Source: Nemertoderma westbladi
Taxonomy: Eukaryota > Animalia > Xenacoelomorpha
Assembly: GCA_032718475.1 (NCBI GenBank)
Contig: JAUCBJ010008780.1
Location: 1-64,000 of the forward strand
Length of the DNA stretch: 64,000 nucleotides
Reading direction: 5' to 3'
The notes below the pieces were generated by a model. That model did not search any database. It was not told where the DNA came from and saw nothing but the letters and a program-made list of their open reading frames with translations. The position numbers were made by a program, and so were the translations under genes. Of the stretch, positions 10,804-64,000 are shown in pieces; the stretch's first letter is position 1, and every line of letters begins with the position of its first letter.

Positions 10804-11058
10804 GTGAGTATTCATTTTTTTGTTTGAACTAAATTATTATTTAAACTAAATTATTAACCTCGTAGTAGGAAAGAGACCTACTCAGAGTCCTACTCCTCGG
10901 GTTAAAACAATAGGAAAAACAACAAAACAACCGGTCAATAATGTACGTTAATTATAATCATTAAACAATGTATGTTATTGTTAATTAAACCATCTTTTCA
11001 TTTTAAATTCTAAATTGTTAATTACAGCTTGATGTTTAGTTGTCTTTTAATTAAAGTC

Positions 11059-12531
11059 TGTAAAGGCTTTTGCGTAATCAGCCGGTTATTTTCCCCGTAA
11101 AGTACTCTGTAGTTGGTTTAACAGGCATAAAAAGCCGTGTCCTTACTGTATTGTTGTTTTAGAGGACATAAAAGCCATTTCTTCTGTATGTGTACTTTAG
11201 CGGACATGATTAGCAATTCTATGACGCAATACGCCGGATCCTCTTGAAACAGTGTAGATACCATGACGACGGCTAACAGCTGATATTGCCACGTGGAAGT
11301 AAAAGTAAAGTAAAGTAAATTTTCTTCGGCCGCTAGGCCAGGGATTACGCACAAAGTCTGACGACTTATTTCCAGTGCGGTCCCCCCAGAACTTTACTCC
11401 CCAGAGGAAACTCCAGTACTCATTTAGCTACCACTTAAGGATGCAAGGCAGAGATGCGCCCTGGCTGGTCCCTTTAAAGCATTCGTGCCGAAACGAAAAC
11501 TGCCCTGGCCCATGTGAGGATCGAACCCACGACCTACAGGAGATGGGAATTCAATGCAACCACTACACCAAGGTGGAACCTTGGTGGAACATCTCTTTGT
11601 TCTTTGTTCTCTCTTTGTTCGGTCGACCAATCAGAGCGTTTTTTGCCTCTGTGTTGGAGATTGTATATAGAAACTAGTGAAGTGAGTCAGTATGTGATTT
11701 TGTCCACAGCCTACAACACCGGCGTGGAACCTCCGTGTTTCAGTCTTTAGTTCAACATTAGTAGGCTTAATTATAGAGCGTATATCCGTTATCTCAACTT
11801 ATCACACTAATCTAATCTCATAACTTAATCATAAATCATACTCACTCATAACATACTTTAACATTACTGCTTTTGCTGTCGGTTATTCATTATATTTGTT
11901 GATGGAATATTATATTTGAAATACGGATCAATAATCAGACACCCCAATCTTCTTGATATACTAAAGGTTAGAGAGACCGGTTACATATAACGATTGCGAC
12001 TTATATTAAGTGGTTTGAAGTGAATCTAACGCTATTTTATAGGCCCTACATGTATTGTCTGTTATTCTCTTTGTATGTGACTAAAATTAGTGAAGGTCGG
12101 CAGATTGGTGTGCAGCATTGTGCAGTATTGTGTATGATTGTGATTGATAACGAAGCATCTCCTAAAGAATGCGCCATATACGTGAATCTATAGCCATCCC
12201 GTTGTGTATAGTTTAAGTCATAACTCTGTTTATATATTTAAAGCGCCACGTCCTAAAGGAACTGTTAATATTTCCCGAAAGTGAATAATATTTGTCAGAG
12301 ATTATATATATTAAGATCAGTCGAATAATACAGTAGGCCTATCCCGCAATACGATTAGGCTTCCGAATCCAGTCTCCCGGGTATATCCAACCAACGGGTG
12401 AATGATCGCGCATAGACTGGTTTCGGCTAATGTAGTGTATCAAATATTTGTCGTAGGCTAAAGACTATCTATTATCTAGAAGACATCCTAATTTGGCAGG
12501 TTAAACTGCTAAAGGTCTGAAAGCGCGAACA
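11059..12531 (+). repeat. E1 5' LTR (carries a SINE insertion)
   Basis: Near-identical to 25019-26196 apart from the insertion and a few substitutions; TATA-like TATATAG near 11664 and TCAGT near 11687. Confidence 0.95.
11299..11583 (-). mobile_element. tRNA-derived SINE of about 285 bp with (TTTAC)n tail, inserted in the E1 5' LTR
   Basis: Absent from the 3' LTR; TSD GTGGAA (11293-11298 and 11584-11589); A box TGGTGTAGTGG, B box GGTTCGATCC; tail type suggests an RTE partner (inference). Confidence 0.9.
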
Positions 12532-12542
12532 ATAACGGATAT
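12532..12542 (+). promoter_or_regulatory. Non-tRNA primer-binding-site position ATAACGGATAT, complementary to LTR 11782-11792
   Basis: Directly follows the terminal CA of the LTR; no TGG; exact reverse complement of ATATCCGTTAT within the LTR. Confidence 0.75.
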
Positions 12543-12859
12543 TTCGTCTAATTGCAGGGTAGGCAATAAATACAGTTTAATATTGTTCTGGTAAGAACAA
12601 TAACGGTTATAGCTTCTGTATTGCAGTAGGCAATAAAGCTGCCTGACTACCTAACCACCCGGACCGGTACCTACAGCAGTACAGGTACAGCAGTATTATT
12701 CGATTGTGAAATTGTATACCGGTAGGCTGTTTAAGAGATTAGGGACTGTACACCCCTTGTTTCTTTTGGAGCTTACTTATTTCTGTCAGTTTTATTTATT
12801 TGTAGGCCAGTATTGAGCAGAAGGCGTGTAAGCCTGCTCAGATTGTATAGACAATTTGT

Positions 12860-13440
12860 AGGTTAGACTGTTGTCTGACTGTTGTTAAGTCTGAACGGAT
12901 TGCAGTGTGTGTAGAGCATCTGTCCGATAAAGTGCTAGTTAGGAACGTAGGGGCTTCAAGTGCTGTGAGGTAAACCCCCTTTGAAAGAATAAGTCGTACT
13001 ACTAGGTTAGAACGCATACTAACTAATCATTTCGGAGTCTGCATATACTGTAGTTTATTTAGGCTTGATAGTAGTCTGCCATCGTTTGGTCTGTACTTTG
13101 TTTGTGTAGTCTGTACGGGTAGCGTATAATTCTTATTTAGATAATTTGTAGGCTGGATAGTTGTCTGGCTGTTGTTAGGTCTGAGGAAAATTCGGTGTGT
13201 GTAGAGTGTATGTCCGATAAAGTGCCAGTTGGGAACGTAGGGGCTTCCAGTGCTGTGAGGTAAACCCCCTCTGAAAGAATAAGTCGTACTACTAGGTTAG
13301 AACGCATACTAACTAACCATTTCGGAGTCTGCATATACCGTAGTTTGTTTAGGCTTGATAGTAGTCTGTCAGTATTTGGTCTGCATTTTATTTGAGTAGT
13401 CTGTACGCGTAGCGTAATATTTATTATTCAGAGTTTATGC
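12860..13440 (+). repeat. Tandem duplication of about 290 bp in the E1 5' leader (also in E2 at about 44690-45240)
   Basis: Two near-identical copies of tgtccgataaagtgc...gtaaaccccct...tagtagtctg. Confidence 0.85.
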
Positions 13441-14322
13441 TATTATTCGCAACATTCATATCCCCAAGTTTATTCCTACAGTAATTGTGCTTGTTATACA
13501 TACCGTTATAGTTAAACTAACTCCGGTACTACATCAGGGCTGCTCGGCGTAGGTAAAGACTGGAGATTTTATGCTTTGGTCACTCCGGCAGATACCGTGG
13601 TTCTTTTAGCTGTTCAAGTATTTTTAACTATTGATTATTTGTTGTACAAGTACCTGTACCTAATTTAGGGTTTAGTGTACAGTGCTTTCCAAAGGTAATT
13701 AGCGTGTAGGCAGTATATTTGTGTTGTAAAGTGGTTAATAGGCACGTTGGTTCTGGTAGACCGCGGTAATTAACTTCTGGGTAGGAACACTCCGTGATAC
13801 ATAACGTAGTACTTATAGCGATACGGCTATAAGTCGTCAGACGGTGGTATTTTCCTATCTGGACAACGCAGTATATTTACTACTAATTATTATTTTCAAA
13901 TACCGTAGTACTCTGTCCGTTGTAATAACCAGATATTCTAACCCTTTGTTAGGCTGGTTTGTAGACTTCTTGTAAAATTACCCTAAAAATTCGTACTTGT
14001 AAATTTTTGTGTTTATTTAGAGATTGTAATCTCAACCCGAATTGTACGTAATTTGTAGTATTAAGTAACTTAGGTAAATTAGAATTATTTGTTTTAGTGT
14101 CCAACAAGTAGCACTCCACTGAGAGCGCACAGCTTCTGTGTAGTGACTCCCCCAGAAATAATAACATTTATTTCAAATATTGACAAAAACCCATTAAACG
14201 GGTATATATATTATAAATCAACTCAAACGATTTATAAATAGTAGGCCTGCCATACAACAACTTGGTCTCAATATCAGTTGGACTACTGCTTAAATAACGG
14301 TAATAAAGTATTCGTCAGCTCT

Positions 14323-17300
14323 ATGGAGCGATTAGAAAAACAACTGTTTCAACAACCCCAAGGACCTCAAGAGCAGGGACAGCTGCTTTATCAAGTTAGA
14401 GAAAGAATTCTACGAATCAGGCTAATCTTATCGGCCTTTGAGGAGGCTTCTAAAAGAAGACAAGACACGTCGTTGCAAGTTGCCGTAAAGACTTGGTTTC
14501 AATGGGTGAGCCTCCAGGTGCAAGGAACGACTCAGTGGAAAGCCCAGCTGGATGAGCGCTCAACCCATGGAGAATCAACAGACGCTACTTTTTCCCAAGT
14601 GGAAAGTGAAGCGGCGGCAGAGAAGCCGCATAAGAGGGATGCCATTGACATCTATCTGTCGGACTATCAATGTTTTGTAGGAGATGAAGAGTTGAGGAGA
14701 AGACTAGAGGGGCTTAGCCCTAATAGTGAAGGAGCCCGGCGTGTGTTGGACGCAATCGATGTGGATAGGCTAGCTGCGAACCAAGCTAAATTCAATGAAA
14801 GCATCCGCATCGCTAAGGTTCAAGAAGAACAAGTATAGAAAAAACGTATAGAAGATAGAAAGACAGCAGCAGCGGCAGTGGCAGCGGCAGAAGCGGATAG
14901 AAAAGCGGCAGAAGCAAAAGCGGCAGCTGCAGCAGCCGAAGCGGAAAGAAAAATAGCAGCGGCAGAAGCAAAAGCGGCAGCTGCAGCAGTAGAAGCGGCA
15001 AGAAAAGCGGCAGCGGCCGAAGTGGAAAGAAAAATAGCAGTGGCAGAAGCAGAACGGAGGGCATCTGAAGAGACAACCCAACTAGAGTTGGAAAATCTTC
15101 AAGAGAGGCAAGGCAGATGATGAATCGATCTACTCCCAAAAGACAAGGTTATACATCATCTGAGGAAGGCGATACCACCGATCCTGAAGGCGGAGGAAAT
15201 CAATCTCGCCTAAGCAGACGTAAAAGAATGTCCCACCGTCAGAAATTGCCTGATTTGCCCCCAGCTGTTAGAAGGCAACTAAATAACACAAACTTAGGTA
15301 GTACAGAACCCACAGACCAAATAATTAAAATAGAAAGACTCCCTACTATAGTAGATGAGCCTGAAATAATTAGGCCTGTTCTTGAAATCACCCCTTCGGT
15401 GATAGAGACACCTGTACTCCCAGAACCTACCTTTAAATTCCCTTTACACAGCACCAAATTATCTGTGCCTAGAGGAACAGCCCCTGAAACAGTGTCGGTC
15501 CTGGACTCCGAGCGAAATATAAAGGATATATCGCCCGTAGTCCCTCGTCTGCCCGCTACGACGTTGGCGGATCCCGCTTCGGCAGTTGATTGGGTAGACG
15601 AGAGACGGCGGGGGATGGATATTCTCCTCGGAAAGATGGAGGAGAATCGAGTGCGCTCCTCCAAACAGGTCCGAGAATTAGAAGGGACTGTTCAACAGTT
15701 AAAGGGAACCGTAAAGGAAAGTAGGTTAGAGTTGCAAGAAGTGCAGCAAAGTATCGCGCTAGAAGGCGATAAATTAGTAAATTTACAAAAGGGTATACCA
15801 CCACCCCCGGTAACAATGTGTCAACCTGTTAGGTTTGAAGTATCTCATGCGCAAGGTGTGGAGCCTACACGCATATATACTGCTAGCGAAGTATAAACTC
15901 CTATAGTGAACCCTATTAAGGGTAATTATAGACATGTTGATAATGATATTCCCTATAGACCTGATCATAATCCGAGAAATTTATATACCGATAACTCGAT
16001 ATTAAATAACACGATGGCCCAAGAAAGTTTTACGCGTCAAATTGCTAGAACCGAAGCCCGGCAAGTGGTAAAGGTGGGAGAGATCATCAAGTTCAATGGA
16101 GATGAGATGAAATGGTTACCTTTTATTGAATATTACAAAGATAACGTACAGAACTCTGTACTATCTAATGGAGAGAAACTTAGATTCCTCATCGAGTGCT
16201 TGGAAGGATCTCCCAAGTTAATGGCGTTAAAGTTTATTGGACATCCAGACGGATTAAGGCAAGTTTGGGATACCCTAAACTTCAGGTATGGTAATAGGAA
16301 TAACATAGCTGGGTATTTGTATGCCAAGTTGGTAGCGCCCCGAAAATTTATTAGCAGCGGGATTATAGAGTTTTTCGATGAGATTCAGGAGATCTGCCGA
16401 CAATTAGATTGGCTAGGTAAGTCTCATGAGTATCAGAGTGCTATGGTTATTAGGGCAGTGGCTTCTACTTTACCGAAGGGTGGAGTAGGTACACGCTGGG
16501 ACAAGAAAGTGTTATATATGATGGAGCAACAACAACGAGACCCTACCATGGCTGATCTCATGTCATTCTTGGATGGCGAAGTGAAATTACAGCTCATAAA
16601 GCAGTCCAGAGAGAAGACACCGGAAAACAAGGTAAGTGAGAAACCCGTCTCTAGGAGAAAGGTAACACCAGTGTGTTATACAGACGACGGCGAAAGCCAG
16701 ACTTCTCAAGGAGAGGATAGCGGGAAAGACACTGAAAGATCTTATTATGTCAATAAAACGCCTAAAGAACAGGTAAGTAAATTCAAGTCTCGAACCAATG
16801 ACAGGAGAGAACAGGTAAGAAAAACTCCTCCTACGTCTCCCAAGAGAATTCAGGTGAGAAAGCCCGAAGAAAGAACGAGTGTGCACACTGTTATTCAAAA
16901 TAAGGTAAGTAACATCAAACCGAAATGTGCGCTATGTGACGGGACTCACCGTTTGAATATGTGTGATGAATTCCTGAAGAAATCATTAGCAGAGAGACGG
17001 GAAGTCATGTGGGATAAGCGGTTGTGTTATAATTGCCTCAGACAAGGACACCAACGGCGAACCTGTTACTCCGACACAAGGGGTGCAAAGTGCAGTGCGA
17101 AACATCATATCTTGTTGCACACTGAATTCGAGCGAAATAGTCCGAGTCAGGTAAGTGATTCCGAACTACATGTCCAATTCAGTGATGTGAACGACACTGA
17201 TCAATCTGAGATGGAAGGATTCTATATGGACGAGTTCTCCGACGAAAACGAATCCTGTTACATGATAAATACCGCAGTGTATCGAGCACTCACGTATGAA

Positions 17301-20300
17301 AAAGATACAGACAGCGACCTCACCCTAACTACTTCTGATCGACAACCAGCTTGGAAAGCGCCATCTTCCAATGTAGGAATCCGAGAATTTCCTGTAGTAC
17401 AGGTAAGGGTCCACGGACCTAAAAGAAGTTATGTAGTGAACGCCCTCCTTGACTCCGGTAGTACAGGAACATTCATCGACAAAGAACTAGCCGAAGACAT
17501 CTTTGCTGGACAACCCAAGTTCCGAACTAAGCTAAACATGTCAGGAATTATGCAGGTTTGGAAATCTACAGTAATCGCGGATTATTATGTAGGTGCGTTG
17601 TCCACCCCCCAGGATGAACTAGGAGAACATAGTATAAGGTCAGTAAAAATGGTGGCGATAAAGAACTTCGCTACCACCCAAGTGGAACCTTATAACTGGG
17701 ATGAGGACGATTTCACCCAGCAGCTGGAAATACCTAGATTCAACACCGATTACCCTGGAGTGCAAATACTCATCGGTCAAAACGTGCATGAAGCGCTCGA
17801 GACATTGGAGAAACGGCCCGCTCAACCGCAACCACTACAAGCTTATGCGGGAAGAACTAGAGTGGGTTGGTACTTTACTGGCCCTTCCCGTAGAACTCTC
17901 ATGGAAAGATTACCGAAAGACCAGGTATGTCAAGTGAGAGAATGGGAAGTCGAGAGCAGTGAGTTAGACGATCCAACTGAGGGAACACCATACTCCTCAG
18001 ATAATGACGATGTCCACCAACTTTTTGACGAGGAGAATGCCATCGATCTCCTTAAGGAAAACGAGACTTGGCAAAACCAAGTGAACTTATGTCAACTCTT
18101 TCTTCCATCAGAGCGAGACGACTATAACGACGAGCTTAATGACGTCATTGAACGTTATAATGCCTAGACTCGGGACGAACACGCCGTACGATTCTTTACT
18201 CAAGAGGCTATAGAGCCCAATTCCTATGATAAGGCCCTATCGGTAGAGGAAGAAAGAGCCAAGCAGATCCAAGAGACAACTACACGTTTTCTTAAAGATC
18301 AAGGTAGATATGAGATCGGTCTACCTTTCCGAAAGCGAGAACCAAAGTTTGTAAACAACAGACCCTTGGCGGAGAAAAGAATTGCTCAACTACATCGACG
18401 CCTTATGGCAAATTCTTCAGCTAAAGAAATGTATCAAACGCAGTTGAAGAAGTTTATTAGCAAGGGATATGCGGAGCTAGTACCGGAAGAAACACCTATA
18501 ACTGAGAGAACGTATTATTTAACTCACCATTACGTTCCCAAACCCGGTAAACCACATGAGGTACGAGTGGTGTTTGATGGCTCCGCCCTCTATATGGGCC
18601 AATCCCTTAATTCTGAATTGCTACCCGGACCCAACTTACTCCAATCATTGTTGGGAATACTTTTAAGATTAAGACAATATTCCATTGCTTTCGCCTCAGA
18701 TATAGAAGGCATGTTCTTACAAGTCAAAGCGCTGGATAGGGATCGAGATAGCCTACGATTTCTGTGGTGGCCTGAAGGAGACCTCAACCAGAAACCGGTG
18801 GAGTACTGGATGACCATCCAAGCTTTTGGGATAATCTCGAGCCCTTCAAACGCCTGTTCCATGGTGCGCACCACTGCGGATGACAACCGAGACGCCTTCT
18901 CTAAAGAGGTGATTGACAACATTAAGCAGGATATATACATGGACGACAATCTAAAGTCCCTTCCATCAGTCGAAGAAGCCATCGATGTCGCTAAAGGAAC
19001 GGTAGAGTGCTTAAAAAGAGGTGGATTTCGATTAACTAAATTCACCAGCAACTCCCGTGAGTTTCTGGAGTCGATCCCGGTAGAAGATTGAGGAGCAAAA
19101 GACCTGGATCTAATAAAAGATGATCTCCCAGAAACTAAGACCCTTGGTTTGAAATGGGACACCAAAAGAGATATCCTGTTTTTCCAACTAAAACAGCGAG
19201 ATAATCCAGTTCGGACTAAACGGATTTGTTTAAGTATCCTGAGCACTTATTTCGATCCATTGGGATTTATTAGCCCAGTTATATTGATTGCTCGGAGTTT
19301 AGTACAACAAATGTGGCTTGAAAACCACTCATGGGACGATCCACTTAAGGGAGAGTTGTTAAAGAAGTGGATGAAATGGGAAGATTCTCTACCAGCTATC
19401 GAGAACTTTATAATTTCCCATTCATATTTTGGTCATGTTCTCCCTACGTATTCCTATCAACTCCATGTGTTTGGAGACGCCAGCGATATGGGAATAGGTA
19501 TAGTAGCCTACCTAAGGGTGGAAACTCCGGACGGAATCAAAGTTGCCTTGGTTACCTCTAAGGCATTGATAAACAATAAGTTGAAAGTTCCTCGAGCGGA
19601 GTTAAAAGCGGCTCTATACGCTACAGCCATCGGCCGGAATGTAACAGAACAGATCGACTATCCACTGGAGAAAACTGTCTATTGGACCGACGCTTTACTC
19701 GTGTTGGAGTATATAACCAATGAAGTCTGTCAGTTCAGTGTCTTCGTTACCAATAGAGTAGCTATTATACTCAGTCGCACAACGATGGATCAATGGAGAC
19801 ATTGCCCCGGAACGATTAACCCAGCAGATATCGCCTCCAGGGGAGCAACTCCACAAGAACTGGTAGATACTCCAGACTGGCTAGGTGGACCCGACTTCCT
19901 CTACAAAGAAGAAGAAGAATGGCCTCCTCATCTTACTACCACAGAGATTAGACAGGCCAAGGGAGCGGAGAAAGTCAAACCTAAAACTCGGGCGAGTAAA
20001 TCGAAGTTATTCAAACCTATGGTAGATCTGTCTGTACTACATACTTCCGGAGACAACGCTTTGGATCAGAAACCCACAGCCACAAATAAACTTGTTGTGG
20101 AAATCCGTGATAAGGATTGGAAATCTGGAATACCAGACGTCTCGCAAGGACTCTCACCTCTTCTGCAGAGAGCGATACATCACTACAGTTCCTGGAATCG
20201 GCTCTGTAAGGCCGTTACATATTTAAAGAGATGTTTTCACCATCACTACTCCGGGATGAAGGCCAAAGGTGATACCGCTCCAATAACATCAGTGCAGGTC

Positions 20301-21821
20301 CATGTTATTAAAGATCTTCCCAAATATAAGATACCCGACAGGTTTCTGAAGGAGAAGATCAGTTATCAGGAGCATGAAGAAACCAACAAGCAGATGCTGA
20401 GACTCCTGCAATGCTATGAAGATTCCGATAAGTATTTCCTGTTGTTGAGAAATCCACAGATGCGCTTAAGGGATCGTTTCTCTAGCACAATGATAGATGG
20501 GTTGATATGTGTTGGAGGAAGATTAACGAATGCTCCATTATCCTTTGACACTAAGTTCCCCATACTCATTAGAAATCTTGAAATACAAGTCAAGATGATT
20601 GTAGATGTTCACAGCAAACTTTATCATGCTGGTAGGGAACGAGTTCTTAGCGAAATTCGAACTCGCTATTATTTTTATAAACCCCGTAGAGCTCTGAACC
20701 AAGTTCTTAGGAACTGTATACCCTGTAGGAAAGCATTCAGTAGGCCTTTAACACAGCGAGAGGCAGAATTACCTAGGGAACGAGTAAGCTTCTATGAACC
20801 ACCCTTCACTAATACCGGTGTGGATTTATTTGGCCCTATTGAAGTATATCGTGCTAGGACTATAGTCAAGAGATGGTGTGTAATCTTTGTTTGTATGACT
20901 TGTAGAGCTATCCATCTCGATATGGTGAACGATTTATCGACCAACAGCTTCCTATTAAGCTTACGACGACAGATCGCTCGCTTTGGCACTAGTAACACGA
21001 TGAGATCTGATAAGGGAACTAACTTCATTGGTGCCAACAATGAAATCAAAGCTTATGTCAAAGATTGGAACCAAAGACAGGTGGACGATCAGCTACGAAT
21101 AACAGCGTCTAGCTGGACCTTCAACGCCGCCGACGCCCCTTGGTGGGGATGAAGTTGGGAGAGATTAATAAGAAGTGTGAAGACAGCATGTCACTTTATA
21201 GTGCCTTGCCGCGCGTATCTCACCGACGAACTTTTGCGGACGTTAATGGAGGAAATCGCCGCCTATCTCAATGAGAGACCGCTTATGCCAGTCTCATCGA
21301 GTCCCGATTCCCTGGAAGCGCTAACACCCGCGCACTTCCTACTGAAGAAACCTGTAGCCATGCTACCACAATCGGAAATCACAGACGGAGACGAATACTG
21401 CCGGCAAACTTGGCAACTCATGCAGTTGTTATCCCGTCGTTTCGCTGATCATTTCAAAAAACATTATCTGCCCACGCTACAACTTCGAACTAAGTGGTTT
21501 GCGCAGCAAGAAAACGTCAGCGCTGGAGACATGGTTCTTATTGTGGATGTAGATCTTCCACATAAGCGGTGGCAGACAGGTCGTATCATCGAGACTCACA
21601 TCTCTGATGATGGTTTGGTGCGATCGGTAGAACTCGTCGTCATGCGACGTTACTTCAAGAAATCGGGAATTGTCTTCGAGACGCAGCAGCTCAATCGCCC
21701 AGTTGGTCGCTTATGTTTACTGGAAAGAGACAGAGAACTCTCCGGAAACTATGGGAGACAAGATACTCTTCCCACGACCACCTCCCTAATCCAACAAACA
21801 TCTAGGGACTCCCCAGCTTAG
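14323..21821 (+). pseudogene. E1 gag-pol polyprotein lacking the gag N-terminus, with premature stops
   Basis: DUF1759-like gag, zinc knuckles CALCDGTH..C and CYNCLRQGH..C, protease LLDSGS, RT YMDD, RNase H VFGDAS/YWTDA, integrase HHCC, GVDLFGP and RSDKGTNF; stops at about 14838, 15896, 18167, 19091 and 21152 and a frameshift near 15118. Confidence 0.93.
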
Positions 21822-23452
21822 TAGCATATGGAGTGGGTGTGTGACCATATTATTTTATATTCTTATTATTTTATATTTATGTATGTATTATTATGTAATT
21901 TTATTATAATCGTTTTATTTAATTTTATTTAGTAGCATGTTATTTTAGCGATTATTTAGTAGATTAGTGCAATATGTTCGCGTTTATTACGTAATTACTT
22001 ATATTATATATTTAGTGCGACGTCGAGAAATAATTATTTTTCTCTTTCCTTACTGCCCGTATTACATTACGAATACGTAACTACAGTAAGATGAAATGTC
22101 CGTACTTATTAAAGTACCATAAAGCCACTACTATATTCAAGTATTATTGGTAGGCAGAGTATTAGGAATGCAAAGTTCAGATCCTCGTGTCTCAGCTAAA
22201 CCAAGCTCTGGGTAGACCTTGGAAACGACTTGCCTCTTCACACTGACATTGCTTTGTGCGATATTGCTCTCATACCGTATATTAAATAATATATATAGTA
22301 GCGTGATGTCCCTTTAACAGTAGCGTATAACGCAAAATAAATCTGTTTAACCCTTTGACCATCTGCAATTCTAGTCGATTAAGATATCGTGGCACCCACC
22401 GATATACTTGAAAGACAAAATTCTAGAATCAGTGGTTAACGTCCCCAGACAAGTTCTGGAATAAACTGGTGCCCATCCTAAATATGAATTATTAATCTTT
22501 ACAAAATATGTCAAATATCAGATCCTTTAAAATTCTAGTCGATTAAGATATCGTAGCACTTACCGATACTCTTAAAAGGACAAAATTCCTAGAATCAAGG
22601 ATCCCAGTCCCCAGACACGTTCTGGAATAAAATTGTGTCTATTTTAATATTAAATAATAAAATTTACGGGAATAAATTTAAATTCATATGTTTCAATGAA
22701 TTTAATAAATTGTCATTTTATACAATTTATAACATTCCCAAAATTCCATTAATTAATAGATCATGGGAGTGGAGATTCACTCTATTAAGTGTATTTGTGT
22801 GCGAGAATCTCCAATATATAGTCAATAGCCGATAAAATTCATAAAATCATATATAGAGAGGATATTGACAATTAAAGAATTACTATTAAATAGCATCCCA
22901 GATCTGCATGCATGAGAATTACCCTAATTCTACCGCTAGCTTTCCATAATGTCACCATGGCAACAACCACGCTAGAATTAGAAGTGAGTTAAAAGAACAA
23001 TAGAAAGCTTGCCCCATTGAATAGCATAGTGAATAAATAGCGCACTGCTAGTATCCAAGGATACATAATAAATACAGTGACATTCTGGAAGGTACTGACT
23101 AACGGACAAATGGCCCGAATGTGTGCAGTTTATGGCAGTTGTGTTGAATTTGTGCGTTTGTAGGTGAATGTTACTACTAAGGTGTGTTTACAGTAGCGAG
23201 TCGCAATTGTGAAAGTAGCCCTAACCCTCCAGAAAGAACCTGAAGTACATCTAAGCCTTTGGGACGGACAGTGGAGTGACTTGTGCCGGTTATCGTTGTC
23301 GTTGTGTAGCTACATCGTTGGCGAAAGCACAGCGACGACGGTACATCGGCGCTGAGGATCTTACACTGTCCGGGGGCAAAAGAGGGGTAGGCAGCGACGC
23401 CCGCTAGCCTAATATATAAACTCATTATAATATTGATAAACTCATAGCAGAT

Positions 23453-24950
23453 ATGACTGAGTTGATAGAAGATGATCTTGGTATCAGGGAGCGATATACT
23501 CTACCTTTACAAGCGTTTGTCGATAGCTTGATACGCGGCGACGCTGGTCCAACTACTACGGAGGATGATGGTCGTTATATCGAACCGCCAATGTCCCCGG
23601 AGCAACTTCTCGCTATACGCATCGTAATGGTACGTATATGGACTTCTTAGCTACTGGTCATCCTATCGACCTACACGATATGAACGATATAGACACCAAA
23701 AGGGAAATGGTTTATTTAAATATCATACCCAGCGGAAGCGGAACGATAAACTGAGACTCGAACACGAAAATTATATTCGAAACCGACTCGAGAGTGCAGA
23801 TGTCGAAGAGCCGGATAAACGCAGCGACTTCACCAAATACCTGGAATTCTTGAGAGAAACCTATCTCGATATTACCAGTCAACAGAATCTAGAAACTCGA
23901 TATCCTCAAGGTATACATCATGACCGCATGGTAGAACTCAAACGGCTCTATTCCACTATGATGTATCTTACCGCCGATCGACCGCTACCTGTTGTACCGG
24001 ATAGCTTCGAACGGATGGAGGAATATTGTAAGCTGGAGAAAGATCACTCGCATTTCCCCTACAAGACGTGCGTTTTTGGTATTATTGCGATGAATGTCCA
24101 AGACCCAACCAACAAACGGAAAGACATAAACATCCGCGGAGACGTTGCTTTAAACACGGTTTTACTCGCTATATTTACGGGAGTTTCAAGCGAAACTTGT
24201 TCGATGTATCACCTACGCTCGTTCGACTCAGACGATCCTTAAATAAACCAATGATCAGAGTTTTGGAATACTCGATCAGATCTCCTCATTCCCTAGTGAG
24301 ACCTCAGACTCTTGATCCTATTAGTATGACGGATCCTCCCGAGCTGTATTCACTGTTCAAAGATCTAGTGTTACCCTAACAATTAATCGGTAACACTCCG
24401 GCAGTGAGCTCTAGTTAGCCGCCCATCTTACCTAGCCGTATTGGGACGCGGACACCTAATATCGCCATTCAACCATATAGTCGTCCCAGTTTAACGCGAT
24501 ACAACCCTTCATCAAGGTGGAGGAGAGCGTTGTACGAAACGAGTTAAACGCTATTCTACAAAGATCAGAAAGGAAACCTGCGTTTGTTCAGATAAACGTA
24601 AGTTGTAATAGCAGGTCCAAGCGGTAAACAAAGTAAATTTATCTCAGTTCGATCGGGAAATCCAGAATCTCTAAGAAGTTATCGAACTTGGACGACCCTA
24701 TTCTCTGCGAGAGTTTTTGGATGAACGTATCCAGCTACGAGCGGAGGAAAATCAGCTCGAGGAGAAGCATATCGAAACGGCGGATACCCCGACCATAATC
24801 CTACACCTTCTGATGCAATCATATTGCACCCTTCACCCAGGATTTATAGCCCTCCTAGTAAAGTGGCTCCCCCCAAAGAGAAAAGGACTCTTGTTAGCCT
24901 CAAAAAACTGCGTAAACGCCGTCCGTGTAAGAAAGACTAACTGTTTAGAG
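23453..24950 (+). pseudogene. E1 additional 3' ORF (ORF3), frameshifted and internally deleted
   Basis: Start MTELIEDDLGIRERY matches E2 ORF 36408-37037; about 24775-24950 matches the C-terminal coding sequence of E2 ORF 33966-35741. Confidence 0.8.
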
Positions 24951-25018
24951 TATTTCTATATTTTAGAAACTGTGATTTGTTATATTTTATAGACTTAAAT
25001 CCCATTTTCTGGGAGCGG

Positions 25019-26196
25019 TGTAAAGGCTTTTGCATAATCAGCCGGTTATTTTCCCCGTAAAGTACTCTTTAGTTGGTTTAACAGGCATAAAAGGCCGTGT
25101 CCTTACTGTATTGTTGTTTTAGAGGACATAAAAGCCATTTCTTCTGTATGTGTACTTTAGCGGACATGATTAGCAATTCTATGACGCAATACGCCGGATC
25201 CTCTTGAAACAGTGTAGAGACCATGACGACGGCTAACAGCTGATATTGCCACGTGGAACATCTCTTTGTTCTTTGTTCTCTCTTTGTTCGGTCGACCAAT
25301 CAGAGCGTTTTTTGCCTCTGTGTTGGAGATTGTATATAGAAACTAGTGAAGTGAGTCAGTATGTGATTTTGTCCACAGCCTACAACACCGGCGTGGAACC
25401 TCCGTGTTTCAGTCTTTAGTTCAACATTAGTAGGCTTAATTATAGAGCGTATATCCGTTATCTCAACTTATCACACTAATCTAATCTCATAACTTAATCA
25501 TAAATCATACTCACTCATAACATACTTTAACATTACTGCTTTTGCTGTCGGTTATTCATTATATTTGTTGATGGAATATTATATTTGAAATACGTATCAA
25601 TAATCAGACACCCCAATCTTCTTGATATACTAAAGGTTAGAGAGACCGGTTACATATAACGATTGTGACTTATATTAAGTGGTTTGAAGTGAATCTAATG
25701 CTATTTTATAGGCCCTACATGTATTGTCTGTTATTCTCTTTGTATGTGACTAAAATTAGTGAAGGTCGGCAGATTGGTGTGCAGCATTGTGCAGTATTGT
25801 GTATGATTGTGATTGATAACGAAGCATCTCCTAAAGAATGCGCCATATACGTGAATCTATAGCCATCCCGTTGTGTATAGTTTAAGTCATAACTCTGTTT
25901 ATATATTTAAAGCGCCACGTCCTAAAGGAACTGTTAATATTTCCCGAAAGTGAATAATATTTGTCAGAGATTATATATATTAAGATCAGTCGAATAATAC
26001 AGTAGGCCTATCCCGCAATTCGATTAGGCTTCTGAATCCAGTCTCCCGGGTATATCCAGCGGGTGAATGATCGCGCATAGACTGGTTTCGGCTAATGTAG
26101 TGTATCAAATATTTGTCGTAGGCTAAAGACTATCTATTATCTAGAAGACATCCTAATTTGGCAGGTTAAACTGCTAAAGGTCTGAAAGCGCGAACA
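25019..26196 (+). repeat. E1 3' LTR (1178 bp)
   Basis: TGTAAAGG...GCGCGAACA, preceded by the PPT and followed by TSD AAGTC. Confidence 0.95.
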
Positions 26197-26519
26197 AAGT
26201 CGTTAAGTTATAATTACTCGCACATTACTATTTTAGTAACTTTATACAGTTTTAAAGCTTTCATTATATTATAAGTTTCCTACAATATAAACTATTGTTC
26301 TTAATTAATTAATTAGTTCTTAACCCAGCAAGTCCCGGACCATGAATGCTTCAATGAAATTTCTTGAAATTTTTATTGTGAGCATAAAGTGGACCTATTA
26401 AGAAAATTCCAAACTTTGGTTAACGTACATATATGGGAAGATAGATTTTACATAGGGTCTACAAATGTAGACGTTAGGACTTCAAGGGTACAAAAATACA
26501 CTTATTTTGTGCAAAAATA

Positions 26520-31580: not shown

Positions 31581-32058
31581 AAAATGTAAGATTCAAATGT
31601 ATTATTCAATGACAAATGAAATTAAATTATTTAATTGTACTGGCTCGGAACATTGAAAATTTATATATTTCATTTTCAAAAATAGATCTAGTTGACAGCA
31701 AATTTTTTCAGCTTTCCATTGATATTTATAACTCATTTTTTTCAAAAAAATCACTTAGCACCTTTTTAACGCCACCCGACGATTCCTAACTCAGTTGTTC
31801 GATTCAACCGCGTAATCTTTTTCCAACTTAAATGGAGCAAGTGACTGACTGACTTCTTGCTTATGTTTCATGGACGCGGAGGCAACTACTGACTGGCTGA
31901 TACAATACAGCAATAGGCCTAACTACACAAAATGCAGTATTATTGCCTAGTAACCGAATTATACCTACTACAATACAATATTTTTAATAAAGCAGCATAC
32001 AGTATATTTTATCTTTTTTATTTTTACAAAGTAACAATTTATTTTTTCTAGATTCAAG

Positions 32059-32676
32059 ATGCCAATGTCCACAAATAAAGTCAACTGCCCCATCTGCGAT
32101 AAAGAGATGCGGAGCAATAATTTACCCCGCCACATTAAAACTCATTTCGCGCAATATAGATGCGACTGCAGCTGGACCTGGTCCTCCAAAAAGAAGACTA
32201 TGGTTGCCCTAGACCTATGGTTGCCCCCGACAAGAACTCCTATACCCAGTCCGACTATTACGAGTGCTCAGATCGCGAAACCATTTTCTGCATATCTCAC
32301 ACTGATCGGTATTAGTACCTTGCCGATCGAGCAAGATCCGCGCCATCAAGAGGGCGCTCCACAACTAAACTATTATCGCGACTCAGACGAATTCATCGAA
32401 GAAACCCCAAGGAGACGAACATCAGGCGAACCAAACCCGCGGGTTTGGAATACGTGAATGGATCATCGACCCAGTTCGAAGGAAAACTTCTGGGTTAAAC
32501 TGGAAGAAGGATCATATGAAAGGCAAAGGCTTACCCAAATAGAGCCAACAGCTCAGCGGAACCCTAGCCAGGAGTTAAGCGCCAGTCTAGCGCAAGCTAT
32601 ATCACCCCACATCCAACCTACAATGGACATGCTTAGTAACTTACAGCTAAAGAAAGCAGCCCAGGTAAGGACTAAT
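32059..32676 (+). pseudogene. N-terminal gag region of older BEL/Pao element E3, beginning with a C2H2 finger
   Basis: CPICDKEMRSNNLPRHIKTH; the frame ...AAQVRTN continues as SNPSRQEQ after removing E2 and one CTAAT copy. Confidence 0.65.
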
Positions 32677-33887
32677 TGTTCGCGCTTTTGAAGACCTTTA
32701 GCAGTTTAACCTGCCAAAATTTATATGTCTTTTAGTTAATTAAAACACCTTTAGCATACGACAATATTTTATGCTAATAAACAAAACATTAGCCGAAGTC
32801 AGCCCATGCGCGATCATTCACCCGATGGATCTACACCAGGGAGGCTGAATTCGGATGCTTAAATTATATTATTGCAGTGTAAGGTTGCAGTGTGAACCTA
32901 CTGTATTATTCGATAGATCGTTAATAATTAATCTCTGACAGATATTATTGGCTTTCGGGAAATATTAACAGTTCCTTTAGGACGTGGCGCTCTATCTATT
33001 TAAACAGAACTAGGACTTATACTAAACGCAACGATACCGCTTATGATTAAAGTATAAGGCGTATTCTTTAGGAAATACTTTGTTACCAATCACAATCATG
33101 TACACTATTCTGCCGACCGTCAGTATATTTGACCACACATAAAGAGAGCAGCAATTGACTCATGTAGGGTCTGCTAAATAACATTAGATTCAATACACAC
33201 CACATTAATATAAATCGCAATTGTTATGTATAGCCTGTCTCTCTAACCTGTAGTGTATCAAGAAAATTGGGAATTTTGGGTGATTTATCCGTATTCTTCA
33301 AAGAGCAATAATTCATCAACAAATAGATACAATTAACAACTGACGGTAAATAACAGTACAAACAATATGATTAGTGCAGTTAAATTAAATGATTGAGACT
33401 CGTTAAGTTCGTTAGTTAAGTGAGTTAAGGTAACAGTTATACTTTCGGTAATTTAAGCAGTTTTACTAAAGTTCTTCCCAAAAGCCGGTGTTATGGCGAA
33501 AAATGGGAACACAACAACAGAATCATATAAAATCATATGACTACTTGACTATACGAGGATACCAACTACCCTTATTCCCCGAAGCTCCCGTCCAACACAG
33601 AGGATGAGCATACAGATAGGAAATTCAGTTCAGTAGCTCTGGGATAGGTCAAAATCAACGCCCACTCAAATTCTATTGGCCGATACGGACAGCAAGGCTA
33701 AGGCAACCTCCCTAAGCTGGTTGGCCGCCGATCGAACAGAACCCAGATACTCTCGTACAGCCCATCAGCCAATAAGCTGGTAGCTTGCACTATTTTACCT
33801 ATAGCTCCCTTTTAGAGTATTCTAGCGACCGGGGGGGAACTGGCCAGCAAAGGCAAACGTATCAGTTATCCCACAAAAGCTTTTACA
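32677..33887 (-). repeat. E2 3' LTR
   Basis: TGTAAAAG...GCGCGAACA on the minus strand; PPT at 33888-33895. Confidence 0.95.
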
Positions 33888-33965: not shown

Positions 33966-35741
33966 TTAGTCTTTCTTGCGCGGATGGCGTTTACGCAGTT
34001 TTTTAAAGCTAGCAAGAGTCCTTTTCTCTTTGGGGCGAGCCACTTTACGAGGAGGGCTATAACTCCTGGGTGAAGGGTGCAATATGATTGCATCAGAAGG
34101 TATGGGATTACGATCGGTATATCCGCCGGTCGAAGTACCGGGTTGATTGACATCAACGTCCGGGGAGAGGGGTCTAACGGCTTTGAGAGCTCGTTTCAAG
34201 ACAGCCGCTCTTACGGGTCCTGTACGAGTGGTCTGCACGAGGGCCGTGGGTGGACCATAGGTAGTTAGAAACTTCCTTGGTTTAATGGTTCTTTCCAACT
34301 CGCGTTCGCGGGCTCGATACTCGTAAGGCCGTCGATATACTTCCTGTAACTCGGGGTGTGAGTTGACAAATAAGTCTCCATAGGCAGGGTCTTGACGGAT
34401 AAAGTTTATTAAGTTGTAAGAATGGATGTCACTCGGATTAATGCTCCTGAGGAATTTGCGTACATATTTAGTTGAAATACATTCTCCAACGCGCTTCAAT
34501 AGTTCATAACTTGATAGGCGTGATTTCTGCTCGACGGAGGCAAACAAATAAGGATGGAACGCATAAACTCCTTCGTAAGCGCGTCCAGGGTAATAGCGAT
34601 GGCGTGAATCACAATGTAAATCAGCGTTCGCTTCCCAAGCTCTGATATAACGTAGTACAATCATTTCATCTACGCTCTCTAAATCATGATTAAAGGGACA
34701 ATCAAAGCTGGCGTGTCCTTTTAATTGACAATGATGGCATTGAGTCATAAATTGGGGGCAGACAGCAAAAATGTGCAAATTATTAAGCCGACAATATGCA
34801 CAATAGATTTCCATCGACGGTTGCTCGTGGAAATAGGAACAGAGATCGTTGGTGTCCATAGACGTAATATGGTCTCTCGATGCGCACAGCCGACAACGTT
34901 GTCTAGAAACATAATTGGCATGGCGATAATCATACGCAGTAAGACACTGTGGACCTTGATACCATTCCAATATGTAGTCGCTATCGCTACTCCGAGACAT
35001 GGGGGGCTGAATCTCTTCAGATTCTAAACATATGGGTTCGTCTTCCCCTTGTATAGTTGAGGTAGGCGTGGCTGTCTCCTCAAGTGGACCTATCGTCTGA
35101 ATTTCCACGACAGAATAACCTGTGGGGATCCGAGGTCTTTGGATAACCGAGGAGTGCAGGTTTATTATACAAATGTCTTTGAAAATAGCGAATCCAGCGC
35201 TATCTAACTTCTCCGCAGCCGAGTCTCTTAAGCTGAGCTTGGTCAAAGCGCGGTCTTTGAATTGGCTATCCACGTTGCGAAACGGGGTTAAAAACCGTCG
35301 GAAACATTCAAAGCAGATGAATTTATTATGTTCATCTAGCTTAGCGAGTTTGGTCCCAAGGATTAATGGATGGGCGCGTATAATGCGACTGCACACATCG
35401 GCTAGCCAACCGGAAAGTGCGGTGTTTTCGAAGATCGTGTAGATAGCTAAGGAGGGACGGAGTGGAACACTCATGAAGCTATACACGGCGCCAGGTGCGG
35501 TCAACGGTCCGTCAAAGTATAATCGAGAATAATGGTCTCCGTATACTTGTTGATAGTTGATGGGATTTCCGACCTTGAAATTCCATCCGTATTCCTGAAA
35601 AGCAAGATGTCCGATGGAAGTTCGTTGCACCTTTGTAATGTTGCTAGACGCATTAGCATACATGGTGCGAAAGAAACCTCGGCTTTCTGCCCAGGGAACA
35701 ATCAGCTGAGTATCCACGAAAGGGTATGGAATGTTCTCCAT
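33966..35741 (-). CDS. E2 ORF3b, 591 aa: putative DEDDy-exonuclease-like C-terminal half, three CCHC-type knuckles, basic tail
   Basis: Open frame; FVDTQL...SIGHLAFQEYGWNFK...GPLTAPGAVYSFMSV; CRLCASRDH..C, CAYCRLNNLH..C, CHHCQLKGHASFDC; KKLRKRHPRKK; no signal peptide or TM segment. Confidence 0.65.
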   Translation of the reverse strand: MENIPYPFVDTQLIVPWAESRGFFRTMYANASSNITKVQRTSIGHLAFQEYGWNFKVGNPINYQQVYGDHYSRLYFDGPLTAPGAVYSFMSVPLRPSLAIYTIFENTALSGWLADVCSRIIRAHPLILGTKLAKLDEHNKFICFECFRRFLTPFRNVDSQFKDRALTKLSLRDSAAEKLDSAGFAIFKDICIINLHSSVIQRPRIPTGYSVVEIQTIGPLEETATPTSTIQGEDEPICLESEEIQPPMSRSSDSDYILEWYQGPQCLTAYDYRHANYVSRQRCRLCASRDHITSMDTNDLCSYFHEQPSMEIYCAYCRLNNLHIFAVCPQFMTQCHHCQLKGHASFDCPFNHDLESVDEMIVLRYIRAWEANADLHCDSRHRYYPGRAYEGVYAFHPYLFASVEQKSRLSSYELLKRVGECISTKYVRKFLRSINPSDIHSYNLINFIRQDPAYGDLFVNSHPELQEVYRRPYEYRARERELERTIKPRKFLTTYGPPTALVQTTRTGPVRAAVLKRALKAVRPLSPDVDVNQPGTSTGGYTDRNPIPSDAIILHPSPRSYSPPRKVARPKEKRTLASFKKLRKRHPRKKD

Positions 35742-36407
35742 ATTCCTGTTGCACGCCTAACATGTTTTCCGCCATCGATGGGAGAGGGCAAGGAAAACCT
35801 ATGACACATTCAACAAGGTTTAAAATACGATCTCAGTAGGAGGATTATGTCATTCGAAGATTATCTCCAAATTAATTTATCCCCAATTATTAAGGGAGGT
35901 GAACAACCAGATTTATGACACACAATGGTACCAGTTGTTCACAGACTAGCCGCGTATCCTTTTAGTCCTTGTATCGGGTTGTGGACCTAAGGAAATTATC
36001 GGTGGTTGATTATGTAATCAACGACAAAGAGATGGGCGTTGATATTATAAATACCAACACAATGGTATATGGACAGGAGGTGCGGACACGAATATAGGCA
36101 TCCAGATAAACAGTAAAGGGTGGGGAGATTTATTAGGAAGCGGTATGATTCATACCACGATACCACTATGATTGGTCGATCGATGAAGGGAGTAAAGAGG
36201 AGGAAGGAGATATGGTAGTATCCATAAGACACCACAATGGACATGTTTTCCGTTACCTCATCATTCATTCTTATCTGCTTACTGTGACACTGATCACAAT
36301 AATTACAGGAAAACGATGAAGGAAGAGAAAGTTACAGCCTCCCGAAGGAGACCGCCCGCGAGCACCCGTGCCCCGGGGAAAACTATTCACATTATGGACC
36401 CTAGACA

Positions 36408-37037
36408 TCAACTCATGTCTCTTCTCCAGTGGTTCCCTTCTATTAGTTCAAAGCTATCTGAGACAACAGATAGTGGACGATCTGCGGTAAGATACATCAT
36501 GGTGAAATAGAGTCGTTTGAGTTCTACCATGGGATCGTGATGTATACCTTGAGGATATCGAGTCTCTAGGTTCTGTTGACTGGCAATATTGAGATAGGTT
36601 TCTCTCAAAAATTCCAAGTAGTCGTTGAAGTTAATACGCTTATCGGGTTCTTCAACGTTTTCTCTGTCGAGTAGGTTGCGAATAGAGTTCTCGTGTTCTA
36701 TTCTCGGTTTATCATTACGATTCCGCTGGGCATGATATTTAAATAAAACCATTTCCCTTTCGGTGTCTACATCATCAGTATCATGTAAATCGGTAGGATG
36801 GCCGGTAGTTAAGAAGTCCATATACGTACCATTACGATTCGTATAGCGAGCGGTGAATTTTCTATAGTCCGATTCACGCGTAAGTTGTTCCTGGGACATC
36901 GGCGGTTCGATATAACGACCATCGTCCTCCGTAATAGTCGGATCGGCTTCACCGCGTATCAAGCTATCCACAAACGCTTGTAAAGGTAGAGTATATCGCT
37001 CTCTAATACCAAGGTCATCTTCTATCAATTCCGTCAT
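36408..37037 (-). CDS. E2 ORF3a, 209 aa, N-terminal part of the additional ORF
   Basis: Open frame homologous to E1 23453-24020; the two diverge after SFE. Confidence 0.65.
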   Translation of the reverse strand: MTELIEDDLGIRERYTLPLQAFVDSLIRGEADPTITEDDGRYIEPPMSQEQLTRESDYRKFTARYTNRNGTYMDFLTTGHPTDLHDTDDVDTEREMVLFKYHAQRNRNDKPRIEHENSIRNLLDRENVEEPDKRINFNDYLEFLRETYLNIASQQNLETRYPQGIHHDPMVELKRLYFTMMYLTADRPLSVVSDSFELIEGNHWRRDMS

Positions 37038-38656
37038 ATCTGCTATCTGAGTTTATTAATATCAATATGAGTTAATATTTTAGGCAAGCGGGCGTCGCTG
37101 CCTACTAGGCTTTGCCCCCGGACAGTGGGTTTCTCAGCGCCGATGTACCGTTGTCGCAGTGTTTACGCCAACATGTAGCAACAGCACGACAACGATAACC
37201 GGCACAAGTCCCACCACTGTCCGTCCCAAAGGCTTGAATCCACTTGAGGTTATCTCGGTAGAGTTAGGGCTACTTTACAATTGCGATTAGCTACTGTAAA
37301 CACACTTTAGTAGTAACATTCACCTATAAACGCACAAATTCCATACAATCATTACTTACTGCACACATGCATGCCATTTGTCCGTTAGTCAGTGTCTTCC
37401 AGAATGTCACGTTATTACTGTGTATCCTTGGATACTAATAGTGCGCTATGTATACTCTTATGTTACGCAATGGGGCAAGCTTTTTATTGTTCCTTTAACT
37501 TGCTTCTAATTCTAGCATGGGTGTTGCCATGGTGACATTATGGAAAACTAGCGGTAGAATTAGGGTAATTCTCATGCATACAGATCTGGGATGTTATTTT
37601 AGTAATTCTTTAATTGTCAATATCCTCTTTATGCATGATTTTATAAATTTTATCGGCTATTGACTGTATGTTGGAGATTCTCGCACTCTAGTACACTCAA
37701 TATAAATCTCCGCTCCCATGATCTATTAATTACTGGAATTTTGGGAATGTTATAAATTGCACAAAATGACAATTTATGAAATTCATTTGAATATGAATTT
37801 AAATTTATTCCCGTGAATTTTATTATTTGATGTTAAATTGACACAAATTTTATTCCAGAGCATATCTGGGGACTTAGGATCCTTAATTCTATAAAATAGT
37901 CCTTCTAAGAATATCGGTAAATACTGCGATATCTTAATTGACTAGAAATTTTAAAGGATCAGGATTTTACAGATTTTAATAAATATTAAATTAATATTTA
38001 GGATGAGCACCGATTTATTCCAGAACTTGTCTGGGGACGTTAACCACTGATTCTAGAATTTGTCTTTCAAGTATATCGGTGGGTGCCACGATATCTTAAT
38101 CGACTAGAATTACAGATGGTCAAAAAGTTTAACAGATTTATTTGCGATTTACGCTACTGTTAGAGGGACATCACGCTACTATATGTATTATTTGTTATAA
38201 GGTAGAAGAGCAATATCGCACGAAGCAATGTCAGTGTGAAGAGGCAAGTCGTTTCCAAGGTCTACCCAGAGCTTGGTTTAGCCGAGACACGAGGATCTGA
38301 ACTTTGCATTCCCAATACTCTGCCTACCAATAATACTTGAATATAGTAGTGGCTTTATTGTACTTTAAGAAGTACGGACATTTCATCTTACTGTAGTCAC
38401 GTATTTATAATATGATACGGACAGTAAGGGAAGAGAAAAATAATTATTTCTTGCCGTCGCACTAAATATATTGTAAGTAATTAAATACGTAATAAACACT
38501 AATATATTGCACTAATTTACTAAATATTCTAAAATAACATTCTACTAAATAAAATTAAAGAAAACGATTATAATAAAATTACATAATAATACATACATAA
38601 ATATAAAATAAAAACAAATATAAAATGATATAGTCACACGCCCACTCCACATGCTA

Positions 38657-45599: not shown

Positions 45600-45610
45600 A
45601 TAACTGTTAC
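45600..45610 (-). promoter_or_regulatory. E2 non-tRNA primer-binding-site position GTAACAGTTAT, complementary to LTR 46364-46374
   Basis: Abuts the 5' LTR end at 45611; exact complement of sense-strand ATAACTGTTAC within the LTR. Confidence 0.75.
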
Positions 45611-46821: not shown

Positions 46822-46826
46822 CTAAT

Positions 46827-55339: not shown

Positions 55340-55409
55340 CCATGTGAGGGTTGAACCCACGACCTATTGGAGATGTGAATTCAAAGCAACCACTACACCA
55401 AGGTGGAAC
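55340..55409 (-). ncRNA. tRNA-like Pol III unit in the left arm (same family as the SINE head at about 11510-11580)
   Basis: A box TGGTGTAGTGG and B box GGTTCAACCC. Confidence 0.5.
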
Positions 55410-56877: not shown

Positions 56878-57128
56878 TATATAGCAATGTCAATTGATAT
56901 TATGAATTTTCGCTGAATGATTTTACAAAATTTTAAATAAATAAAACTTTTATGAAAATAAATAAAACTTTTAAAAATAAAAATTAGAGAATGAATGAGA
57001 ATGCGGTGAATGGGGGCTTTTATAGAGGGAGGCTAGAATGGAGTTGTGAAAAAAGAATAATCTATTGTAAACCAGATGTTTCTTGAATTTTTCTCAGGCG
57101 TATTTAACAATAAAGTGGGTGAAGGTGA

Positions 57129-63521: not shown

Positions 63522-64000
63522 TTGCCATTCCCATCGCCTGTGCTTCCAATGGGTTCAACGGATGCTGTACAGACTCTCCTGTTGGGTGCGGTTCACCTGT
63601 CGGGCCTGTCGATTTTTTCTGTGTCGGATATATCATTGGGGGTAATGGCCCCCTCCATATCTCTGCATCGCACGATCTATTCTGGTCCAAGGGGTTCGGT
63701 GTTTATATTCTCGGCTGAGTGTATTGCTGATATTGTAATGGGGGAATGTCACCCTGCCCCCCCCCCCCCACCGGTGTTATGTTTGGTACTGGGATTGATG
63801 TTAATATATTGGGGCCCACACACATATTGGCAATAACTCCCCCCTCCCCTGGGTATATGTTATATCCCTGCATATTATAGTCATACTGGTGTGCAGGTAC
63901 CGGTGTAGGCCTATCCACTTCTTGCCTACCTACCAGTATGTACGCCGCAACTTCCGGATCTAATCCCGTTGTTCGCGCTACCCTATCGCCTACACTATCT

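Follow-up and report, generated by a model that had tools for sequence, protein, structure and literature searches.

Two BEL/Pao retrotransposons without a tRNA primer-binding site and their predicted self-priming by a fragment of the 5' leader

E1 and E2 are two BEL/Pao retrotransposons found in the window, the whole 64,000-nt stretch of Nemertoderma westbladi DNA that was analysed. In both, the 11 nucleotides that follow the 5' LTR lack TGG and are the exact complement of a segment of the element's own LTR, and the two elements differ there by three changes, each matched on the other side. We consider it probable, at roughly 0.7, that E1 and E2 prime their reverse transcription in the manner of Tf1, by a fragment of their own 5' leader, and that they represent an intron-less form of this system. 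In most families of their relatives, the same kind of primer appears to be built from two exons around an intron in the LTR.

Structure and classification of E1 and E2

The coordinates of both elements and of their features are collected in Table 1. Pfam families DUF1759, Peptidase_A17, Integrase_H2C2 and DUF5641 identify E1 and E2 as BEL/Pao elements, and their RT relatives agree with this assignment (Peptidase_A17 is found in most of the RT relatives listed). Moreover, the order of their motifs fits the BEL-type domain order PR-RT-RH-IN, acidic motifs of RNase H were found in E1, and LTRs with TG...CA ends, target site duplications (TSD) and a polypurine tract (PPT) are all present. The primer-binding site (PBS) of 18 nt for tRNA-Arg or tRNA-Gly that the ICTV profile gives for Belpaoviridae (PMC8742986) is missing from E1 and E2, and also from most of their relatives; the two elements are nevertheless assigned to BEL/Pao because Pol decides membership, the PBS trait being descriptive. 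The Pol of E1 and E2 likewise sets them apart from the Tf1/sushi group, which is characterized by a Ty3/gypsy chromovirus Pol. The marine hosts of the best hits provide a lead towards a Sinbad/Suzu-like (Sailor) clade.

Both elements are defective, as the pol of E1 is broken by stops and that of E2 is mostly lost. E2 is best read as a young element, with deletions that keep the 1564-aa frame open and nearly identical LTRs, and as a non-autonomous one, since its RT, RNase H and integrase are mostly deleted. Between pol and the 3' LTR, E2 holds further ORFs on the minus strand, namely the 596-aa frame of Table 1, which has cysteine/histidine knuckle-like motifs, and a 214-aa frame at 36408-37052. 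A broken counterpart lies in E1 at 23444-24242 (plus strand), and none of these sequences matched a Pfam family above the cut-off. The insertion in the 5' LTR of E1 is accompanied by a 6-nt duplication, and a 70-nt part is found again at 55340 and 57880; the insertion is possibly a SINE.

Table 1. Positions of the elements E1 and E2 and of their features in the window.
Feature	Position	Strand	Remarks
E1, whole element	11059-26196	+	TSD AAGTC at 11054-11058 and 26197-26201
E1 5' LTR (TG...CA)	11059-12531	+	Contains an insertion of ~290 nt, 11299-11589
CCAAT box (11627) and TATA-like box (11664)	11627-11669	+	E1 only; candidate promoter 118 nt upstream of the 11-mer
E1 LTR 11-mer, predicted 3' tip of the self-primer	11782-11792	+	Ends AT, then C
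G-poor tract directly after the E1 11-mer	11793-11865	+	Highly variable across the family
AG/GTTA, weak candidate acceptor	11965-11970	+	Rival splice model, 10/11 pairs; low acceptor score
Predicted 8-bp U5 hairpin, 18 nt ahead of the LTR end	12492-12513	+	Common to E1 and E2; loop is the second AG/GTTA
E1 PBS	12532-12542	+	Exact complement of 11782-11792
Duplicated PBS-like site (second copy), E1 leader	12600-12610	+	One mismatch; preceded by GAACA, as is the first
E1 gag-pol	14245-21821	+	Several stops; DUF1759, RT YMDD (18936), Peptidase_A17/RNase H region, integrase zinc finger, DUF5641
E1 polypurine tract region	25005-25018	+	Adjoins the E1 3' LTR
E1 3' LTR	25019-26196	+	98.9% identity with the E1 5' LTR; 11-mer copy at 25451-25461
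E2, whole element	46821-32677	-	TSD ATTAG at 46822-46826 and 32672-32676
E2 5' LTR	45611-46821	-	
E2 LTR 11-mer	46364-46374	-	Ends AC, then C
E2 PBS	45600-45610	-	Exact complement of 46364-46374
12-bp hairpin (predicted), adjoining the E2 PBS on its 3' side	45571-45599	-	Core ATTGC/GCAAT, also after both E1 PBS copies
E2 gag-protease ORF, 1564 aa	38657-43351	-	RT, RNase H and integrase mostly deleted
E2 extra ORF, 596 aa, ahead of the 3' LTR	33966-35756	-	No Pfam family above the cut-off
E2 3' LTR	32677-33887	-	99.7% identity with the E2 5' LTR; 11-mer copy at 33430-33440

A covarying 11-nt complement at the end of the LTR

An earlier note on this DNA had proposed self-priming from six 11-mers of E1 and E2, and all six are present where it placed them. 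Its description of the junction also holds: TGG is missing after the 5' LTR of both elements, and the complement starts at offset 0, the first base past the terminal CA, as the geometry of a primer demands. In both elements the match ends at 11 nt, this being the longest exact complement of the sequence after the LTR, and the 11-mer occurs once per LTR (at position 433 in E1 and 448 in E2). By chance, 0.00077 (E1) and 0.00063 (E2) exact 11-nt matches would be expected per LTR, and a match of 11 nt arose in 0/200 dinucleotide shuffles for each element, with offsets of 0-4 allowed.

The three differences between E1 and E2 fall at positions 4, 6 and 11 of the LTR 11-mer, and each is matched in the PBS, exactly as the earlier note had claimed. 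Given that R-U5 is 81% identical between the elements over 640 aligned nt, the rough chance of three exactly matching changes together with eight kept sites is ~8e-5, a figure for covariation within a lineage of two elements only. Predicted duplex energies are in line with this pattern, at -12.0 and -11.7 kcal/mol for the cognate pairs versus -2.7 and -5.0 kcal/mol for the swapped ones.

The leader of E1 contains, at 12527-12640, a tandem duplication of the LTR end, the PBS and the core of the hairpin. The second PBS copy would pair with the primer at -7.7 kcal/mol, versus -12.0 kcal/mol for the first, and a joint between 12539 and 12608 in one contig of run X3 leaves out one of the copies.

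A model for self-priming

The earlier note had offered a choice between two readings, in which the 11-mer is either the 5' end of the transcript or the 3' end of R; this choice misses a third case, in which a longer 5' fragment has the 11-mer at its 3' tip. In the model that we favour, the transcript would begin within the 5' LTR, either with the 11-mer itself or as much as ~90 nt ahead of it, and the 11-mer would pair with the PBS over ~750 nt of R-U5, between the U5 hairpin and the leader hairpin. A cut just after the A-Y end of the 11-mer, probably made by the RNase H domain as in Tf1, would expose a 3' OH at the base that directly follows the LTR, so that minus-strand DNA would start at the LTR end. 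The RNA that supplies the primer might be the very one being copied or a different LTR transcript. During plus-strand synthesis the primer would be copied back into the PBS, a step that we assume to proceed in E1 and E2 as it does in Tf1, and both sites would therefore stay matched without separate selection.

Primers across splice junctions in related elements

By RT alignment, 91 relative loci (RT 40-48% identical) were collected from MAG and metagenome contigs. The end of the 5' LTR could be fixed from two LTR copies in 17 loci, which reduce to 16 as L012 and L013 are one family. Under strict splice-site rules, an exact self-complement of 10-15 nt is present in 14/16 of these relatives. In 13 of them it is formed across a GT-AG intron in the LTR, and in one (L006) it is contiguous. 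The two exceptions reach 11 nt under a looser rule (L052) and 10/11 across a clear intron recognized by eye (L002). When PBS and LTR were swapped between elements, 8/420 pairs reached such a match, and six of these pairs come from three related families that have one primer in common. As the families surveyed share ancestry, the counts do not represent independent events, and the introns are DNA-based predictions.

A blind scan covered 49 further loci; 25 others were left out because their upstream DNA was too short or an RT hit was lacking. Spliced complements of at least 11 nt were found in 15/49, versus 0.5 expected in shuffles, whereas contiguous matches (13/49 versus 10.3 expected) were not above chance. 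Contiguous 11-12-mers are present in L006, and also in L034, L036 and L047; the latter three, chosen afterwards from the contiguous matches of the blind scan, form one subclade with like geometry and covarying letters. In relatives of the splice-junction type, the complement forms only across a strong predicted GT-AG intron of the LTR, whereas in E1 and E2 it is contiguous and the splice sites are low-scoring.

The last two bases of the primer segment are AC in 21 and AT in 2 of 23 families, with L088 trimmed by one base (22/23 by maximal pairing), and the base after the primer is C in 15/23. E1 (AT/C) and E2 (AC/C) fit this A-Y end rule only as the unspliced 11-mer. Moreover, AATAAA or ATTAAA is found within ~170 nt downstream of the primer in 23/23 relatives, and upstream in 2/23. 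The relatives' primer therefore lies on the 5' side of R, which argues against priming by the 3' end of the genome.

A FastTree tree of RT-RNase H (116 sequences of unnamed elements and 518 columns, rooted at the midpoint, with hits below 300-330 aa omitted) pairs E1 with E3, a BEL/Pao remnant of the same window (support 0.99), and places the pair beside a large marine clade (0.97), not inside it. Spliced types are spread through the marine clade, and contiguous types are nested within it at two places. Since E1 and E3 stand outside the clade of the relatives, and E1 and E2 are both defective, the rules derived from the relatives are applied to E1 and E2 by inference.

Taking these patterns together, we tentatively suggest a wider scenario, to which we give somewhat less than even odds. 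In a large branch of animal BEL/Pao elements, tRNA priming may have given way to a single inherited mode of self-priming whose cleavage end, A-Y, is fixed, and host splicing would assemble the primer from two LTR exons in most families. E1/E2, L006 and L034/L036/L047 would then be repeated intron-less versions, the primer intron having been gained or lost several times, and E1 might be primed by a capped leader ~100 nt long, of which just the tip is paired.

Several side observations came from the survey. Eleven GTDB MAG contigs (L001-L011) encode BEL/Pao RT relatives, with full LTR pairs in some (L002, L005, L006), and are probably host contamination within bacterial MAGs. A search of viral contigs with RT found no relatives, and the DNA pattern of the LTR end had no match in viral or metagenome contigs. 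Elements with offset 0 (L005, L002, L075, E1/E2) have a GGGAGC-type PPT end in common, and those with a PBS spacer of 2-4 nt mostly end their PPT in GGGGCCGG plus 0-4 nt, so that PBS spacer and PPT end may co-vary.

Promoter signals, sequence variation and RNA folding around the 11-mer

The TATA/TCAGT pair that the earlier note had reported upstream of the 11-mer is present in E1, with TATA at 11664 (118 nt upstream) and TCAGT at 11687 (95 nt upstream), but E2 has no TATAWA upstream, and an AGTAAA is found there 27 nt ahead of the 11-mer. Among the relatives, TATAWA occurs within 130 nt upstream of the primer in 4/23 (L041 at -31, L034 at -55, L047 at -49 and L068 at -105) and is absent in 19. 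Judged by TATA, transcription would begin at the primer itself in L041; the start would precede the primer by ~20 nt in L034 and L047 and by ~90 nt in E1. No canonical poly(A) signal (AATAAA/ATTAAA) was found in the LTRs of E1, E2 and L006, in agreement with the earlier note for E1 and E2.

Contigs from public runs were aligned to the E1 LTR. The bin that bears the 11-mer is well covered, and the G-poor tract right after it is almost uncovered: in run X1, depth drops from 180,245 in the preceding bin to 257 in bin 11810-11853, and a contig joint skips 11794-11875 in two runs. In a second contig alignment, bin 11816-11842 has no cover. The second alignment shows no variant of at least 5% at either 11-mer (40/42 rows, from E1-like contigs only and with the sites near the ends of the stretch). 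At 12510, within the predicted U5 hairpin, T is replaced by C in ~40% of the depth of both runs, a family variant by which a G-U pair becomes G-C. The family of the E1 LTR (11590-12900) appears to be very abundant in organism A, with 9410 contigs aligned in run X1, and is also found in organism B.

Folding predicts the long-range helix of E2 in 3/3 windows when the RNA starts at the 11-mer (probability 0.93-0.94), versus 0/3 windows when it starts upstream (0-0.44); for E1, the helix is predicted in 1/6 windows. These predictions weakly favour a transcript start at the 11-mer in E2. No tRNA gene was found in the window, and an Rfam search gave one match, below its threshold.

Alternative explanations

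The pairing could be real and yet serve regulation, as an RNA switch or as a packaging or dimer signal, or the two sites could be near-palindromic protein-binding sites (TAACNGTTA, Ovo/Myb-like). Indeed, both the 11-mer of E2 and the second copy in E1 come close to a palindrome, and the predicted helix closes the entire R-U5 domain. However, the two sites match as direct repeats at 8/11 positions and as inverted repeats at 11/11; the palindrome is thus broken at just the positions that are matched. Furthermore, the primers of the relatives are not palindromic, a fixed site at the LTR end is the geometry of a primer, and a purely regulatory role would leave the elements without any primer. We regard this explanation as improbable, with an outside chance of being correct.

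Splicing might also build the primer in E1 and E2 themselves, with the GT in the 11-mer acting as donor and joined to a downstream AG/GTTA, which would rebuild 10/11 pairs. Both elements have GT at positions 7-8 of the 11-mer and two conserved AG/GTTA sites (introns of 179/187 or 708/724 nt), the resulting 6+5 split is that of the L005/L003/L068/L076 type, and the high variability just past the 11-mer is intron-like. Against this, the donors score -5.7 and -1.0 (ranks 54/86 and 24/80 among GTs) and the acceptors -8.0 to 1.5, versus 5.8-12.6 and 3.5-15.8 in the relatives, whose scores are inflated by a matrix trained on themselves. About 10% of shuffles reach such a spliced match, the matched change at position 11 would fall inside the intron, the A-Y end of the primer would be lost, and the distal AG/GTTA is the loop of a conserved hairpin. 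Splicing in E1 and E2 is thus quite unlikely.

We find it just as unlikely that priming falls to a host RNA (spliced-leader RNA, a small RNA or a tRNA fragment) and that the match to the LTR is secondary. Priming by half-tRNAs does occur in copia lineages, according to passages of PMC6317226, but E1, E2 and about twenty further PBS sequences would each require a host RNA of their own, TGG is found within the first six bases after the LTR in 1/21 rows only, and the match of each PBS to its own LTR would be left unexplained.

In another version of self-priming, raised in the earlier note, R ends with the 11-mer and the 3' end of the genome itself serves as primer at the PBS. This version draws on the upstream TATA and TCAGT of E1, on the AGTAAA of E2 and on the lack of AATAAA downstream in both LTRs, but it is very unlikely in view of the downstream poly(A) signals of all 23 relatives, the 3-11 nt terminal exon that a spliced primer would require, the fact that neither TATA nor AGTAAA is common to E1 and E2, and the poly(A) tail that a Pol II genome, capped and polyadenylated (PMC8742986), would bear. 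The other part of that note's proposal, self-priming as such, is supported by the geometry, the covariation and the self-complement of the relatives.

Comparison with known systems

By sequence criteria, E1 and E2 would work like Tf1, yet they lie outside the Tf1/sushi group. As described in passages of PMC7175516, Tf1 RNA pairs with its PBS through its first 11 bases and is cleaved by RNase H between bases 11 and 12; Tj1 and Tf2 resemble Tf1 in self-priming (passages of PMC4600332 and PMC5341516). Like E1 and E2, the Ty3/gypsy elements concerned (Tf1 and Tf2 of Schizosaccharomyces pombe, Tj1 of S. japonicus, Tf1/sushi and Tcn1) have no tRNA PBS, and an 11-nt LTR segment complements the PBS beside the 5' LTR (the same three sources, in part). 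In contrast, E1 and E2 belong to another superfamily, their loop is ~750 nt long and their relatives appear to use an LTR intron; moreover, the primer of Tf1 is its first 11 bases, whereas the transcripts of E1 and E2 are predicted to start at the 11-mer or some way before it.

Self-priming has also been predicted for Tcn1 and for the TAR lineage of plant Ty1/copia elements (Houba, Osr-1), from a complement of at least 10 nt located 0-5 nt after the LTR (passages of PMC6317226). E1 and E2, at 11 nt and offset 0, would be recognized in the same way; the TAR elements differ in being plant copia elements, and there too the prediction is made from sequence only.

With Belpaoviridae (Semotivirus), E1 and E2 share LTRs, a PPT, gag DUF1759, PR-RT-RH-IN, Peptidase_A17, DUF5641 and a 5-bp TSD. 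They depart from the ICTV profile, which describes BEL/Pao replication as tRNA-primed and poorly understood and gives genomes of 4.2-10 kb (PMC8742986), in having no tRNA PBS and in spanning 14-15 kb. The earlier note knew of no self-priming BEL element, and none was found in our literature search, which ran outside most subscription papers, Repbase, GyDB and supplements. The main text of two BEL/Pao surveys (PMC3118150 and PMC554778), as far as available, is silent on priming, the only primers in PMC554778 being those for PCR, and the passages available from PMC3601003, PMC8220671, PMC5443660 and PMC12451622 contain nothing on BEL priming.

Significance

Self-priming thus appears to extend to BEL/Pao elements, with E1 and E2 as the intron-less form of a system that their relatives would mostly build by splicing. 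To the earlier proposal, the present work adds a survey across hosts with controls, the A-Y end rule and the position of the poly(A) signal. If the model is correct, a third LTR superfamily self-primes, in many marine animals, after Ty3/gypsy (Tf1/sushi, Tcn1) and the predicted case of plant copia TAR, and PBS annotation that looks for TGG overlooks such BEL/Pao elements. E1 and E2 offer the simplest test case, as their predicted primer end is one defined base, and their comparison with spliced relatives would allow splicing to be tested as a gate on reverse transcription.

Other sequences in the window

Two more BEL/Pao remnants are present in the window, E3 at 46905-52004 and another at 62255-63554, the latter with a gag fragment at 62796-63554; no LTR pair was found within the window for E3 or for the gag fragment. 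E3 begins just past the insertion site of E2, and its RT is 42% identical to that of E1. Finally, two short ORFs (32035-32454 and 56119-56889) have similar N-terminal C2H2-like zinc fingers and possibly come from another mobile element.
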